Positions 35,076 through 40,745 of a stretch of DNA of 64,000 nucleotides are shown one piece after another. Position numbers and translations under genes: made by a program. Source of the DNA: Bacilli bacterium (GTDB lineage: Bacteria > Bacillota_I > Bacilli_A > RF39 > UBA660); contig JAFRAK010000039.1 in NCBI GenBank assembly GCA_017405445.1, forward strand, positions 2,773-66,772, given 5' to 3'. Under the pieces are notes generated by a model. The model saw nothing but the letters and a program-made list of their open reading frames with translations, did no database searches and had not been told where the DNA came from. Numbering within the stretch: the first letter of the stretch is position 1; the number at the start of each line of letters is the position of its first letter.

Positions 35076-35570
35076 ATGATAGTAGCACTCGAGGGTCCTG
35101 ATGGGGCTGGCAAATCAACTTTGGTTAGACACTTACAAGAAAATTATGGGTTAAAAATGATACATTCTAGTTCTGAAACTAAAAACGATTTAGAGTATCA
35201 TTTAGATTTATTAAGAGAGGATGATGTAGTTTTAGACAGAGCAAACTTAGGTGAAATAGTTTACCCAGCTATATATAATAGAGCATCTAAAATGAATTGG
35301 GATGAACAAATAGATTTTATGAATGAATGTCAAAATAAAGATGTTATTTATATAATATTCTATTCATCTGACTTTAATGTTTTAAAAGAAAGACTATTTA
35401 AAAGAGGAGATACTCAACAAGTATTAGAAAATGCAGAAAAAATAAATCTGGCATTTAGAATATTAGCAGAACAATTTTCAACATTTTATGATAATGTGTA
35501 TGCACTAGATATATCTAAAGTATCTGACCAAGTAAAATTCTTTGAAGATATAGTAAAGGAGAACAAGTAG
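35076..35570 (+). CDS. deoxynucleoside monophosphate kinase (thymidylate-kinase-like)
   Basis: MIVALEGPDGAGKSTLV P-loop, DR motif. 164 aa. Confidence 0.7.
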   Translation: MIVALEGPDGAGKSTLVRHLQENYGLKMIHSSSETKNDLEYHLDLLREDDVVLDRANLGEIVYPAIYNRASKMNWDEQIDFMNECQNKDVIYIIFYSSDFNVLKERLFKRGDTQQVLENAEKINLAFRILAEQFSTFYDNVYALDISKVSDQVKFFEDIVKENK

Positions 35571-35845
35571 TGGAAGATTTAAAAGAAGATGAATTTTATC
35601 AGTATATTGTGATATCTCAAGAACAAGACGGCTTTATGGATAGTTTAAATAAAGCTTCTTTAGATGGATGGGAGTTAATACATTCTAATTCATTTCCAGT
35701 AAACAAACCAGATTATCTAAAGAATTCTATCAACATAGTAATTATATATACAGCAATTTTAAGAAGAAAAGCTAAATTAGAAAAGAGAGGAGAAGATGAA
35801 AATGTTAGACTTGAATCCGGAGACAAGAAGCAAAGAATGGACTAG
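35570..35845 (+). CDS. hypothetical protein
   Basis: GTG start overlapping the stop of the kinase gene. 91 aa. Confidence 0.4.
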   Translation: MEDLKEDEFYQYIVISQEQDGFMDSLNKASLDGWELIHSNSFPVNKPDYLKNSINIVIIYTAILRRKAKLEKRGEDENVRLESGDKKQRMD

Positions 35846-37118
35846 AGAAGTAGTAGAAGCTGCAAATGCTAAATATGTAGATGCTAGTACTATAGCTCCA
35901 GTAGTTATTATTTCATATAAGAGAGGAGGAAATGCTTCATCTATTAAATTATTAAATAATACTAACGTTAAAACTTATCTTTTTGTTTATGATGATGATT
36001 ATGAGAATTATAAAAATGCAGTAGAAAATTCTAAAAATATAGAAGTAGTTTTATGCCCATCAGCACAGTTTAGAGGAGCAGCTAAGAAAAGAGATTTTGT
36101 TCAAGAAACTATGTATAATAAAGGATTTGAAGATTATTTTATTTTAGATGATGATATATCAGCTTTGTACTATACAGAAATAGGAACTACTAAAGCTGGT
36201 TCTTATAAAGCTCAAAAAGTTCAATTAGACCCTGAAAGATTCTTTAAAACTTGGTATTATGTAATTCATGATTTAGTAGATTATGAAGTTACTTTAGGAG
36301 GAATTATTGCAGAATTTGCAAGCTGGGGACAAAACTTATACAAATTACCAGTTACAGATAAAACTGGTAGAATATGTCAAATAATGTATATAAATGCTAA
36401 AAAGTTTGCAGAAAATAATATAAAATATATTGAAGAAAAATCTTGGGATGACTTTGATGTAATGTTACAAGTAGCTCATCTAGGTTTAGGATTATCTCAA
36501 ATAAGATGGTTAACTTATGCTGGTGATACTATGAATCCTAACAATTCAGTAGCTTCTGGTGGAGACTTTACTTGGACTAAAAAATCTATGAGATTGTACC
36601 AAAAGTGGGGAGATAATGTAGGTTTTAAAGCAGATAAGGGTCAATTAAATACTACTATAAATTGGTCTAAGATAAAGAAAGACTTACAAGTTTTAGGTCA
36701 CTTAAATATAACTTATAAAGAAGAATGGAAAAAATATTTTGCATTAGATAAAGAATATGAGAATGCTACTAATGATAATCCATACAATTTAGACTATATA
36801 GGATTTACAGAATTATGGAGACCTGAAATAGAAAAATGGTTAGAAAAACATCCACAGAAAGTAAAGAAAGAGAAAAAAGAAATATCTAAAGAAATTAAAG
36901 AGAAAGCTCATGAACTAGTAGAAGAAGCTAAAGAAAGAGGCTTAATTAAAACTTTAGATGAAGTAACAGAAGATGATACTGCATCATTAACTGTACCAGA
37001 TAATTTTGAAAGAGATAATACTATAGATATAGTTGCAAAATATGAAGATGATATAACTCCATTAGATAGAGAAGTTTTAGGAGACTTTATTGATAAAGGT
37101 GATATAAATGAATTATAA
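35796..37118 (+). CDS. DxD-motif protein, putative nucleotide-sugar glycosyltransferase (paralog of 38945-39865)
   Basis: PVVIISYKRGG...AAKKRDF...YFILDDDISALYY. Same N-terminal architecture as 38945-39865 ([10 protein letters not shown]...TRKRNM...[12 protein letters not shown]). Confidence 0.4.
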   Translation: MKMLDLNPETRSKEWTREVVEAANAKYVDASTIAPVVIISYKRGGNASSIKLLNNTNVKTYLFVYDDDYENYKNAVENSKNIEVVLCPSAQFRGAAKKRDFVQETMYNKGFEDYFILDDDISALYYTEIGTTKAGSYKAQKVQLDPERFFKTWYYVIHDLVDYEVTLGGIIAEFASWGQNLYKLPVTDKTGRICQIMYINAKKFAENNIKYIEEKSWDDFDVMLQVAHLGLGLSQIRWLTYAGDTMNPNNSVASGGDFTWTKKSMRLYQKWGDNVGFKADKGQLNTTINWSKIKKDLQVLGHLNITYKEEWKKYFALDKEYENATNDNPYNLDYIGFTELWRPEIEKWLEKHPQKVKKEKKEISKEIKEKAHELVEEAKERGLIKTLDEVTEDDTASLTVPDNFERDNTIDIVAKYEDDITPLDREVLGDFIDKGDINEL

Positions 37119-38229
37119 ATATGATTTTGTAATAGTTGGAGCTGGCTTAGCTGGCTCTACGCTAGCTTATTTACTACATAATAAAGGGTATAAAGTAAAA
37201 GTAATAGATAAAAGAGAACATATTGCAGGAAACTGTTATACAGAAAATAAAGACAACATAAATATTCATGTATACGGTCCTCATATATTTCATACTAATA
37301 ATAAAGAAGTCTGGGATTTTGTTAATAAATTTGCAGATTTTAATAACTTTATAAATGAGCCTGTAGCTTTAGCTGCAGATAATAGAGTTTACAATATGCC
37401 TTTTAATATGAATACTTTTTCTAGAATTTTCAATATAGTACATCCCGATGAAGCTAAGTTTAGAATAGATAAAGAAATAGAAGAGTATAGAAAAGAGCAT
37501 TCTACTATAGAAAATTTAGAAGACCAAGCTATAAATATGGTAGGAACTACAATATATGAACTTTTAATTAAAGGTTATACAGAAAAACAGTGGGGAAAAT
37601 CATGTACAGAATTGTCACCAGAAATAATTAAGAGGCTACCGTTAAGATTTACTTATAATAACAATTATTTTAATGACAAATACCAAGGTATACCAGAAGA
37701 TGGCTATACTAATATGATAAGAAGAATGCTTCAAAACATAGAAGTAGTTTTAAACTATGATTATAAAGAACATGAAGATGAAATATTGGATGAAGCTAAA
37801 TATATTATATACACTGGAAGAATCGATGAATTTTTTGACTACATACATGGTAAGTTAGAGTATAGAAGTTTAAATTTTGTTACTGAAAGCTTAGACATCG
37901 ATAATTTTCAAGGTAATGCAGTTGTAAATTATACAACTAAAAAAGTACCTTATACAAGAGTAGTAGAACATAAACATTTTAATAATGATAAATCTAATGT
38001 AACATATATCACTTACGAGTTTCCTAGTACATCAGGTGACCCATTCTATCCACTTTCTGATAAAGCTAATATAGATTTATATAATAAGTATAAAGAGGCT
38101 TCTGATGAATATGATAAAGTGATATTTGCAGGAAGATTAGGTAAATATAAGTATTTCGATATGGATGATGTAATTGAAGACTGTTTTAAAATATTCAACG
38201 ACATATTAAATAAAAAGGAGGAATTATAA
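37108..38229 (+). CDS. glf: UDP-galactopyranose mutase
   Basis: FAD fold YDFVIVGAGLAGST, IDKREHIAGNCYTE and VYGPHIFHTNNKEVWDFV are typical Glf signatures. Confidence 0.8.
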   Translation: MNYKYDFVIVGAGLAGSTLAYLLHNKGYKVKVIDKREHIAGNCYTENKDNINIHVYGPHIFHTNNKEVWDFVNKFADFNNFINEPVALAADNRVYNMPFNMNTFSRIFNIVHPDEAKFRIDKEIEEYRKEHSTIENLEDQAINMVGTTIYELLIKGYTEKQWGKSCTELSPEIIKRLPLRFTYNNNYFNDKYQGIPEDGYTNMIRRMLQNIEVVLNYDYKEHEDEILDEAKYIIYTGRIDEFFDYIHGKLEYRSLNFVTESLDIDNFQGNAVVNYTTKKVPYTRVVEHKHFNNDKSNVTYITYEFPSTSGDPFYPLSDKANIDLYNKYKEASDEYDKVIFAGRLGKYKYFDMDDVIEDCFKIFNDILNKKEEL

Positions 38230-40136: not shown

Positions 40137-40142
40137 TTACAT

Positions 40143-40168
40143 AGAGCAGAGAGATCTGCTCTTTATTT
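40143..40168 (+). terminator. rho-independent terminator
   Basis: AGAGCAGA-GAGA-TCTGCTCT followed by TTATTT. Confidence 0.6.
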
Positions 40169-40213
40169 GTGCTAACATAATATAATTATAATAATTTTAA
40201 GGAGGTGAAATAT

Positions 40214-40745
40214 ATGGCAACATTAGAAGAATTAGCAAAAAGAGTTCAAAGACTAGAACAAAGAATTATTCCAAACGATAAAGAATTTGAAGTAACAGTT
40301 CCTTATATAGACTTTGGAATAGATGACACTACTAAGTTACCAAACAGAAAGAAAGAGGGAGATTGTGGTTATGATGCATTTGCATTAGAAGAAGTAACTA
40401 TAGAACCACACTCTGGAACTAAAGTACCTTTAGGAATCGGTTTAATAATTCCAGAACCATTTGGAGTAAAAGCTGAAACTAGAAGTGGTAACTTTATATC
40501 TGGTTTAAATATTGGCTCTGCATGGGTTGATAGAGGTTATAGAGGACAAATCAATTGTTTAATACAAAATATAACTGATGAACCTATAACTATACATAAA
40601 GGTGATAGACCATGTTCTATAGAACTAGAGTTAACATTTAAAATGAACTTAGTACCAGCTAAAGAATATTATACTCCAGAAGAGTATGAAAAAGTAATGA
40701 ACACAGAAAGAGGAGCTACTGGCTTCGGTTCAAGTCGGTCGATAG
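40214..40745 (+). CDS. dut: dUTPase (trimeric family); C-terminal motif V restored by +1 frame change at CGG 40736-40738
   Basis: Start at ATG 40214 after AAGGAGG. GYDAFA, RSG, VDRGYRGQI motifs. The zero frame ends GFGSSRSIV*. Skipping C40736 gives ERGATGFGSSGR* (TAG 40743-45), matching the R-G-x-x-G-F-G-S-(T/S)-G consensus. Confidence 0.8.

Follow-up and report, generated by a model that had tools for sequence, protein, structure and literature searches.

Organization of the gene cluster

The DNA analysed here is a stretch of 64,000 nucleotides (the window) of contig JAFRAK010000039.1 from a Bacilli bacterium assembly (GCA_017405445.1), and its subject is a compact cluster at positions 35076-40750 that encodes a homolog of thymidylate synthase (ThyA), a nucleotide kinase, the uridine diphosphate (UDP)-galactopyranose mutase Glf, two glycosyltransferases of the TAGT family and a dUTPase. 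A preliminary description of the window had taken these genes for a probable DNA hypermodification cluster of a phage, and the open reading frames (ORFs) on which it relied were all found on the + strand where it had placed them, with the motifs that it named and with significant family matches. The genes of the cluster are as follows.

35076-35570 (+): nucleotide kinase, YorR-like/thymidylate-kinase-like, proposed 5-hydroxymethyl-dCMP kinase; P-loop GPDGAGKS
35570-35845 (+): conserved ORF of 91 amino acids (aa), no family assigned; overlaps the TAGT1 start by 50 nucleotides (nt)
35796-37118 (+): TAGT1, predicted DNA-base glycosyltransferase of the glycosyltransferase A (GT-A) fold with a C-terminal helical extension; Pfam TAGT 6.3e-13
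37108-38229 (+): UDP-galactopyranose mutase Glf; Pfam GLF 1.6e-76
38229-38906 (+): predicted dCMP hydroxymethylase of the T4 gp42 type; T4 gp42 structures E 5e-60
38945-39865 (+): TAGT2, second predicted GT-A DNA glycosyltransferase; Pfam TAGT 2.9e-11
39882-40136 (+): SpoVG homolog, the final gene ahead of a terminator-like hairpin; Pfam SpoVG 1.2e-35
40205-40750 (+): trimeric dUTPase with a 40-residue N-terminal extension; Pfam dUTPase 6.2e-15

The start of Glf overlaps the stop of TAGT1 by 11 nt and its own stop overlaps the start of the hydroxymethylase, and the terminator-like hairpin with its T-run lies at 40143-40162, after SpoVG. The earlier assignments of a P-loop dNMP kinase (also Pfam Thymidylate_kin, 3.1e-7) and of a dUTPase both hold, and the 91-aa ORF gave no family match in Pfam, PHROG or NCBIfam scans. 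A promoter scan was uninformative in this AT-rich DNA, with 90 sites observed against 68 expected.

The window has a guanine plus cytosine (GC) content of 25-34%, its + strand is richer in G than in C all along, and nearly all of its long ORFs lie on that strand. Profile scans showed that it also codes for T4-type baseplate, portal and tail proteins, a RecA/UvsX-like protein, a clamp loader, a Toprim protein and a sigma-factor-like protein. At least 14-19 metagenomic contigs, which come from several samples, carry proteins identical to those encoded in the window, and the longest of them, such as ERZ28018966 k141_954524, measure about 132.5 kb. The window accordingly belongs to an uncultured myovirus of about 132 kb that is found repeatedly and infects a low-GC bacterium. 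This phage is a T4-core myovirus, and the 64-kb window is the part of its genome covered by the gene scans. NCBI bins containing the identical proteins are labelled 'MAG: Romboutsia sp.' or 'MAG: Bacilli bacterium', and the host is probably a Romboutsia-like member of Bacillota. Among 50,697 phage records, a nucleotide search found no DNA-level relative of the cluster region and tblastn with TAGT1 and TAGT2 gave no match, so that the clade is without a sequenced isolate there.

The ThyA homolog and the predicted base

The protein encoded at 38229-38906 has the ThyA fold, with the motifs FICTY and MRSNDCVYGYDNDY, and its residues 28-223 match the structures of T4 dCMP hydroxymethylase (PDB 1b49/1b5e) with an E of 5.1e-60 in phmmer, in agreement with the ThyA/dCMP-hydroxymethylase fold and the catalytic Cys named in the preliminary description. 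It is 47% identical to T4 gp42 in a multiple alignment, its best tblastn matches are the gp42 genes of T4-like phages, and it scores far under every thymidylate-synthase equivalog cut-off of NCBIfam. The catalytic Cys (C146 of E. coli ThyA, C148 of T4) falls in FICTY, which is aligned to T4 FMCTN, and the position of ThyA N177 is occupied by Asp in DNDY, aligned to RNDY of T4 and PFN of E. coli. In E. coli ThyA numbering, the window enzyme reads D143/C146/D169/D177, identical to T4 gp42, whereas the same alignment gives E143/C146/N169/D177 for RB69 gp48 and RL38J1 gp216 and L143/C146/D169/N177 for E. coli ThyA.

The change of N177 to D has been associated with dCMP specificity, that of L143 to D or E with a non-methyl product, and that of D169 to N is the mark of the flavin-dependent 5-hydroxy-dCMP synthases of RB69, DLP3 and RL38J1 (PMC13326640). 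Neither the window enzyme nor any of its aligned relatives has the D169N substitution. Based on the D143/C146/D169/D177 signature, the product is predicted to be 5-hydroxymethyl-dCMP and the base 5-hydroxymethylcytosine (hmC or 5hmC). Two other bases were considered and rejected, 5-hydroxymethyluracil (hmU) on account of Asp instead of Asn at the N177 position and 5-hydroxycytosine on account of Asp instead of Asn at the D169 position. Since the gp42 signature indicates cytosine as the base, the analogy with SPO1-type hmU phages and their HU homolog TF1, which had been drawn in the preliminary description, does not apply. The serine hydroxymethyltransferase (SHMT) of the phage, and FolD, which is encoded beside the cluster in one relative (L013), fit folate chemistry.

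Glf and the two TAGT proteins

The identification of Glf, which had been called unambiguous, was confirmed by a score of 377.4 bits against the NCBIfam equivalog TIGR00031 (cut-off 303.75) and by the presence of the FAD-binding GxGxxG (VGAGLAG) and of YGPHIFHT. It matches the mutases of C. jejuni (UNGM, 7.7e-124) and E. coli (UGM, 3.6e-118) in the PDB, with about 50% identity to both over the full length. At the positions aligned to R59 and R168 of C. jejuni UNGM, it has His (HIFHT) and Lys (IIKRLP), the same as E. coli UGM; these two arginines are presumably what separates the UDP-N-acetylgalactosamine-accepting C. jejuni enzyme, a point for which no literature confirmation was found. Given its family membership, Glf is predicted to make UDP-galactofuranose from the UDP-galactopyranose of the host.

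Both TAGT1 (49.6 bits) and TAGT2 (44.1 bits) exceed the gathering cut-off of 27.5 of Pfam TAGT (PF20691), and both also match a PHROG named for the T2/T6 beta-glucosyl-HMC-alpha-glucosyltransferase (TAGT2 to phrog_842, 2e-14). They had been described as two mutually similar proteins with a DxD motif; the motif, (I/M)LDDDI, is indeed present in each, but the similarity is distant, with 24% identity over 141 residues and a pairwise E of 6e-5. In 22 members of the TAGT1 family, LDDDI and residues D118-D120 are invariant. Structure prediction for the proteins starting at 35796 and 38945, which had been suggested as a check, gave GT-A folds with viral TAGT proteins as top matches, for TAGT1 with a predicted local distance difference test (pLDDT) score of 81.5 in AlphaFold2 and a template modelling (TM) score of 0.82 (E 6e-15), and for TAGT2 with a pLDDT of 86.9 and a predicted TM score of 0.88. 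The viral matches include a beta-glucosyl-HMC-alpha-glucosyltransferase, and the PDB matches of the TAGT1 model are GT-A enzymes including GalNAc-T2, GpgS, ColGalT1 and the galactofuranosyltransferase GlfT2; no solved structure was detectable by sequence for the TAGT profile.

The T2/T6 enzyme has been placed in PF20691 with a GT-A fold, in a family with many 'solitary' TAGTs that have no assigned role (PMC13216743, PMC13390438). TAGT-class GT-A enzymes act on 5hmC DNA or on glucosyl-hmC (PMC13216743; bioRxiv 2023.12.21.572611), and phage GT-A enzymes of this sort attach sugars directly to 5hmC (bioRxiv 2023.12.21.572611). The TAGT genes adjoin the gp42-type enzyme both in the window and in its relatives. 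The close homologs of TAGT1 are all metagenomic and number 33 among 5.8 billion database proteins, and a profile search of 1.84 billion representatives gave only 414 relatives.

Conservation of the cluster and gene fusions in other lineages

Five larger relative loci (L001, L002, L011, L013 and L014) were compared with the window. The order kinase, TAGT1, Glf, ThyA homolog, SpoVG and dUTPase is kept in all five, at 54-80% protein identity, which argues that the cluster is no chance juxtaposition. TAGT1 was found in every relative examined and SpoVG keeps its position in all of them; orthologs of the 91-aa ORF occur at the same place in L001, L002 and L014 (46-54% identical). L002, L013 and L014 have TAGT2, L001 lacks it, and L011 has an unrelated 454-aa ORF in its place. 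In L002 (12485-13282) and L014 (10409-11206), the place of the gp42-type enzyme is taken by a MilA-like ThyA homolog, whose identity to the window enzyme is about 26-30% in BLAST and 23-29% in the multiple alignment and which has the same D143/C146/D169/D177 signature. A different enzyme with the same predicted chemistry in the same position suggests that the function, rather than the particular gene, has been selected.

The best 80 IMG/VR loci with Glf relatives were scanned for neighbours within 8 kb. A TAGT-profile match lies near Glf in 8 of the 80, and a ThyA homolog in 3, all three with the hmC signature. In one locus (L090, GC 0.32), a fusion of the kinase to the ThyA homolog (3350-4663), whose kinase domain is 41% identical to that of the window, accompanies a TAGT (Pfam 3.8e-14) and Glf. 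In another (L078, GC 0.22), a protein of 685 residues (7998-10055) joins an N-terminal Glf (Pfam GLF 5.5e-68) to a TAGT1-like C-terminal part, which aligns to the TAGT1 family with a probability of 96.4% in hhalign (E 1.2e-9, 257 columns) and has the DDD motif, and downstream of this fusion lie a dCMP deaminase and a ThyA homolog. Among the 414 TAGT1 relatives, the protein P0143 has the two domains in the reverse order, P0137 joins a TAGT1-like domain to a ThyA homolog with the D/C/D/D signature, and six proteins (P0167 and five similar ones) join a dCMP-deaminase domain to a TAGT-like domain. The fusions of Glf to TAGT domains point to UDP-galactofuranose as a donor for TAGTs, and the position of Glf within the operon likewise implies a galactofuranose donor rather than UDP-glucose. 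In view of these fusions and of its presence in every relative examined, TAGT1 is proposed as the transferase acting on 5hmC in DNA and is the likeliest user of UDP-galactofuranose. By analogy with the TAGT of T2/T6, TAGT2 probably adds or extends a second sugar.

Glf also recurs beside other DNA-modification genes. In a group of siphovirus-like contigs of about 38 kb and GC 0.39 (L035 2270-5834, likewise L036, L039-L041 and L049), the order is TAGT, ParB-N-like protein, TAGT and Glf, adjoined by endolysin and terminase genes and with no ThyA homolog within 8 kb; here Glf may feed dioxygenase-type (post-replicative) 5hmC pathways too. In Lactobacillus phage ATCCB (L016, MK504445.1 33827-37391), a kinase, an hmC-signature ThyA homolog, a protein of the T4 beta-glucosyltransferase family (PF09198, 9e-22) and Glf are consecutive. 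Aeromonas Tulanevirus phages have gp42 with the D169 hmC signature plus Glf, which in Aeromonas phage 25 (L007, DQ529280.1 150841-154112) is 31% identical to that of the window. In that phage, Glf is followed by two hypothetical proteins of about 350 aa, possibly DNA glycosyltransferases yet to be characterised; they gave no Pfam match and no BLAST link to the glycosyltransferases compared, and for this lack of support they were dropped as glycosyltransferase evidence. In L055, the gene for a sulfotransferase-family protein (9080-10030, Pfam Sulfotransfer_2 6e-13) separates Glf from a thymidylate-kinase-like gene and an hmC-type ThyA homolog, a hint that the DNA sugar of this phage may be sulfated. 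Contigs named 'Bacteriophage sp.' from human faeces, which have the most similar Glf, were set aside as irrelevant, with a GC content of 45-60% and no other gene in common.

Accessory genes

The following genes elsewhere in the window bear on the supply of precursors or were named in the preliminary description, in which SHMT, dCMP deaminase and HU had been reported correctly.

42532-42831 (+): MazG-type NTP pyrophosphatase, candidate dCTPase; phrog_3301 pyrophosphatase 9.4e-12
19930-21198 (+): SHMT; Pfam SHMT 3.5e-147
22076-22687 (+): dCMP deaminase family enzyme; Pfam dCMP_cyt_deam_1 4.9e-15
28947-29231: HU homolog; family match in the window scan
about 27721-28906 (+): C5-cytosine methyltransferase gene with a 1-nt frameshift; Pfam DNA_methylase, profile positions 79-323 only

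The kinase of the cluster matches phrog_761 (4.9e-18) and, as its best PDB match, SPbeta YorR (4.6e-6), whereas its match to the gp1 family phrog_139 is only 3.7e-4. Its identity is 28% with RB69p045 and 31% with ATCCB_0044, two kinases from cytosine-glycosylation clusters, and YorR-like or thymidylate-kinase-like 'nucleotide kinases' have been listed in the cytosine-glycosylation clusters of DLP3, RB69 and RL38J1. The dUTPase matches dUTPases of the PDB at 1e-13 and is conserved in the relatives, as is the MazG-type protein of 99 residues. The family profile of the latter matches SSO3215 (1.5e-7), dCTP pyrophosphatase 1 (3e-6) and MazZ (3.5e-6), and it has no BLAST similarity to a T4-type gp56 ortholog; as a dCTPase it is a candidate only and the weakest link of the pathway. 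SHMT scores 538 bits against an NCBIfam cut-off of 335 and is proposed to supply 5,10-methylene-tetrahydrofolate, and the dCMP deaminase is proposed, by analogy with T4 Cd, to provide dUMP for thymidylate.

The C5-methyltransferase named in the preliminary description is present as a gene, but it is not intact. The ORF at 27721-27975 ends in ...GNPPCSRTF*, directly after the catalytic PPC motif, and the remainder continues in another frame as GLSNINR... The identical fragment of 84 aa occurs on 19 contigs from several samples and independent assemblies, so that the frameshift is real. An exact-sequence look-up of the 337-aa methyltransferase ORF gave no match, probably owing to a different start chosen by gene callers. 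The gene is absent in L002, L011 and L013 and is split elsewhere along its length in L014. It is either a pseudogene or subject to a programmed frameshift, and it is probably non-functional; broken and missing from several relatives, it is placed outside the pathway. Its inactivation agrees, weakly, with C5 positions that are already occupied.

Proposed pathway

The family memberships, diagnostic residues, gene order and fusions are all direct observations, and the likeliest pathway can be outlined from them; in it, every catalytic activity, the sugars and the order of their attachment, and a full substitution of cytosine are inferred. The gp42-type enzyme would convert dCMP into 5-hydroxymethyl-dCMP, with methylene-tetrahydrofolate recycled by the phage SHMT. 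The YorR-like kinase could then phosphorylate 5-hydroxymethyl-dCMP, host enzymes could complete the triphosphate, and the polymerase and replisome of the phage would build hm-dCTP into DNA. Meanwhile, the MazG-type pyrophosphatase and the dUTPase may exclude dCTP and dUTP from the DNA, and the dCMP deaminase may feed thymidylate synthesis. Glf would convert host UDP-galactopyranose into UDP-galactofuranose, from which TAGT1 could transfer galactofuranose onto the hydroxymethyl group of 5hmC in DNA, and TAGT2, where present, could attach another sugar. The outcome would be galactofuranosyl-5-hydroxymethylcytosine, perhaps in the form of a disaccharide, and this modification would protect the genome against restriction and further defences aimed at DNA.

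The preliminary description had suggested that the phage makes a hydroxymethyl-pyrimidine and decorates it, by means of the DxD proteins, with a sugar supplied through Glf; the TAGT profile and fold, the synteny and the fusions support such a reading. With the identity of the sugar left aside, synthesis of hmC followed by DNA glycosylation is very likely. The complete mechanism, namely pre-replicative hmC synthesis and subsequent glycosylation on DNA with UDP-galactofuranose as the donor, is considered probable with fair confidence. A small margin favours the broader expectation that galactofuranosyl-5hmC, alone or extended by TAGT2, is carried in virion DNA both in this clade and in several unrelated phages with Glf adjacent or fused to TAGT genes.

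Several points weigh against the complete mechanism. The small numbers of Glf loci with a TAGT (8 of 80) or a ThyA homolog (3 of 80) imply that most viral Glf genes are unrelated to DNA, and no UDP-galactose-forming enzyme was seen in the window. The donor-sugar specificity of a TAGT cannot be read from its sequence, and GlfT2 is one among many GT-A matches of the TAGT1 model. In a distant locus (L008, a 4-kb contig), a ThyA homolog lies beside a TAGT1-like gene without Glf. The rule that distinguishes D169 from N169 has a single paper behind it (PMC13326640). Among the window ORFs scanned, there is no recognisable ortholog of the T4 gp56 dCTPase or gp1 kinase, and full replacement of cytosine is thus no more than a prediction. 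Finally, the phage is known from metagenomes only.

Alternative interpretations

The alternative that survives best is that hmC is glycosylated by the TAGTs with a common host sugar, such as glucose or an N-acetylhexosamine (HexNAc), while Glf serves otherwise, for example in perturbing the host wall, or has no role in DNA. UDP-glucose is the donor of the characterised T2/T6 TAGT (PMC13216743), GT-A clusters reconstituted on the E. coli metabolome gave hexose, HexNAc and heptose (bioRxiv 2023.12.21.572611), and both the general lack of DNA-modification neighbours around viral Glf genes and the L008 arrangement would be accommodated. It is nevertheless judged unlikely, given that Glf is translationally coupled between TAGT1 and the hydroxymethylase and kept in all larger relatives, that it is fused to TAGT1-like domains in either order, and that it recurs beside DNA glycosyltransferases in unrelated phages.

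Modification of 5-hydroxycytosine through an ether-linked sugar, as in RB69, DLP3 and RL38J1, would follow the same cluster logic of a YorR-like kinase, a ThyA homolog, glycosyltransferases and a sugar-nucleotide enzyme, and RL38J1 has Glf too. This is improbable, however, in that D169N, present in both verified hydroxylases aligned, is missing in the window enzyme and all of its relatives, that the identity to T4 gp42 and the phmmer match are high, and that the phage SHMT and the FolD of L013 fit folate-dependent synthesis.

The preliminary description had also allowed that Glf and the DxD proteins act on surface glycans of the host; in this reading they would modify envelope polymers, for example teichoic acid or capsule, as in superinfection exclusion, and not DNA. 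Galactofuranose is a normal constituent of Gram-positive wall polymers, prophage GT-A enzymes such as TarP modify teichoic acid, and Glf sits in polysaccharide contexts in S. suis prophage records and in the Enterococcus record; TarP is moreover a structural neighbour of phage GT-A enzymes (bioRxiv 2023.12.21.572611). Yet both proteins exceed the TAGT profile cut-off, TAGT members with a tested substrate all act on DNA bases and the others occur only in DNA-modification contexts (PMC13216743), and some fusion proteins combine a TAGT1-like domain with a homolog of dCMP hydroxymethylase or with a dCMP deaminase. The genes lie within a replication and nucleotide-metabolism module, and the window contains no transporter, flippase, polymerase or GT2 gene, unlike the genuine wall-polysaccharide Glf locus L017, where GT2 enzymes, a pyruvyl transferase and an ABC-2 exporter surround Glf. 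Envelope modification is therefore highly improbable. The Glf of the Enterococcus 'phage' Efs 1-1-1 likewise belongs to a wall-polysaccharide locus and was kept as a contrast case only.

Least probable of all is replacement of thymine in the manner of SPO1, in which a dUMP hydroxymethylase would lead to hmU with the dUTPase, dCMP deaminase and TF1-like HU as accessories, for although all three are present, T4, an hmC phage, likewise has dCMP deaminase and dUTPase activity, the base-reading residue is the cytosine-specific Asp and not Asn, and the nearest homologs are dCMP hydroxymethylases.

Other genes in the window

A number of further genes were observed. A full-length tmRNA lies at 44813-45175 (+) (Rfam RF00023, 104.7 bits, E 2.9e-41), with the tag peptide ANYEAEKVAA according to ARAGORN, and a tRNA at 43731-43817 (+) has an unusual anticodon loop that ARAGORN could not assign. 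The genes at 45346-46174 and 46218-47310 (+) each consist of two ORFs in different frames; in L001, L002 and L014 each has an undivided counterpart, of 274-293 aa for the first and 343-363 aa for the second, and in L011 both correspond to one protein of 645 aa with Pfam MJ0330_N. A Tad2-like (Thoeris anti-defence 2) protein is encoded at 21201-21461 (+) (Pfam 1.3e-20), with a homolog in L001 between Glf and the ThyA homolog and in L002 immediately upstream of the kinase. A strong terminator-like hairpin lies behind the gene of an SPFH/flotillin-like membrane protein of 496 aa (40833-42323 (+); Band_7 1.4e-21, Flot 2.3e-8), and this gene is missing at that position in all relatives examined. 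The window further encodes a GroEL/Cpn60-like chaperonin (53637-55010 (+), 5.8e-24) and a GIY-YIG/NUMOD3 homing endonuclease (23821-24558 (+)), and the RecA/UvsX-like protein (15346-16695 (+)) has a weak Tox-HDC match in its C-terminal part.

Comparison with known systems and implications

The general scheme is the T-even paradigm of a ThyA homolog, a kinase and DNA glycosyltransferases. As in T-even phages, a gp42-type hydroxymethylase would make hmC before replication, sugars would be added to DNA afterwards with the involvement of a TAGT, and dCMP deaminase and dUTP/dCTP clean-up functions accompany the pathway. Unlike T-even phages, the window has two TAGTs, a YorR-like kinase instead of gp1 and no gp56 ortholog, and no GT-B alpha- or beta-glucosyltransferase (PF11440, PF09198) was matched among the window ORFs scanned; in addition, Glf lies inside the operon and the host is a low-GC bacterium of the Gram-positive type. 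The window shares a ThyA-family hydroxymethylase, dUTPase, dCMP deaminase and HU homolog with SPO1-type hmU phages but differs from them in the Asp that replaces Asn as the base-reading residue and in the predicted substrate, dCMP; SPO1 DNA is not known to be glycosylated.

In the glycosylated 5-hydroxycytosine system of Rhizobium phage RL38J1/Pootjesviridae, the phage also encodes Glf, and a thymidylate-kinase-like kinase, a glycosyltransferase and a ThyA homolog lie side by side (RL38J1 gp214-216). Galactose is the base-proximal sugar on cytosine C5 of RL38J1 DNA, and UDP-galactofuranose formed by the phage mutase has been proposed as its source (PMC13326640). The RL38J1 enzyme is a flavin-type hydroxylase with N169 and an ether-linked sugar, in contrast to D169 in the window enzyme, and its Glf lies about 60 kb from the ThyA cluster; gp215 was considered as a TAGT relative and rejected, showing no similarity to TAGTs. 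The preliminary description had called the modification undescribed, which is thus partly right, given that Glf-derived galactose on 5-hydroxycytosine has already been proposed for RL38J1; in a literature search that did not cover all journals, this Pootjesviridae paper (PMC13326640) was the only one found to link a phage Glf with DNA hypermodification.

Many GT-A clusters associated with ThyS or a dioxygenase have been mined from metaviromes (bioRxiv 2023.12.21.572611). The TET/5mYOX- and ThyS-associated clusters share with the window the glycosyltransferase family, the R...DDD motif and the attachment of sugars directly to 5hmC (PMC8256090, Pyle 2023 preprint), and the ThyS-associated ones often have a dCMP deaminase and a second glycosyltransferase (bioRxiv 2023.12.21.572611). 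Unlike in the TET/5mYOX clusters, the 5hmC of the window phage would come from the nucleotide pool, and there is no dioxygenase in the window. A pyranose-furanose mutase and furanose sugars are not mentioned in the text of bioRxiv 2023.12.21.572611. Genes 0044-0047 of Lactobacillus phage ATCCB resemble the cluster in their kinase (31%), hmC-signature ThyA homolog, DNA glycosyltransferase and Glf (52%), but the glycosyltransferase is a GT-B enzyme of PF09198 and not a TAGT, and ATCCB is an 80-kb phage of another lineage; the paper describing it mentions neither DNA modification nor the cassette. The new elements are an operon that unites an hmC-type synthase with TAGT-class GT-A transferases and Glf, the occurrence of such an operon in phages of low-GC bacteria, and the Glf/TAGT fusion proteins.

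Whether a given restriction system, CRISPR nuclease or DNA glycosylase can act against a phage is decided by sugar-decorated cytosines, which also have consequences for sequencing phage genomes and for engineering them. Mammals lack galactofuranose, and galactofuranosyl DNA could be of interest to immunology or diagnostics. The cluster predicts galactofuranose on hmC as a new DNA sugar, in phages whose hosts are gut-type bacteria of low GC, and a UDP-galactofuranose donor for a family whose solitary members have no assigned function, and the fusion proteins are ready-made constructs for testing this donor. If true, hydroxymethylcytosine would for the first time be shown to carry a furanose hexose, and a subclass of TAGTs would be defined as DNA galactofuranosyltransferases.

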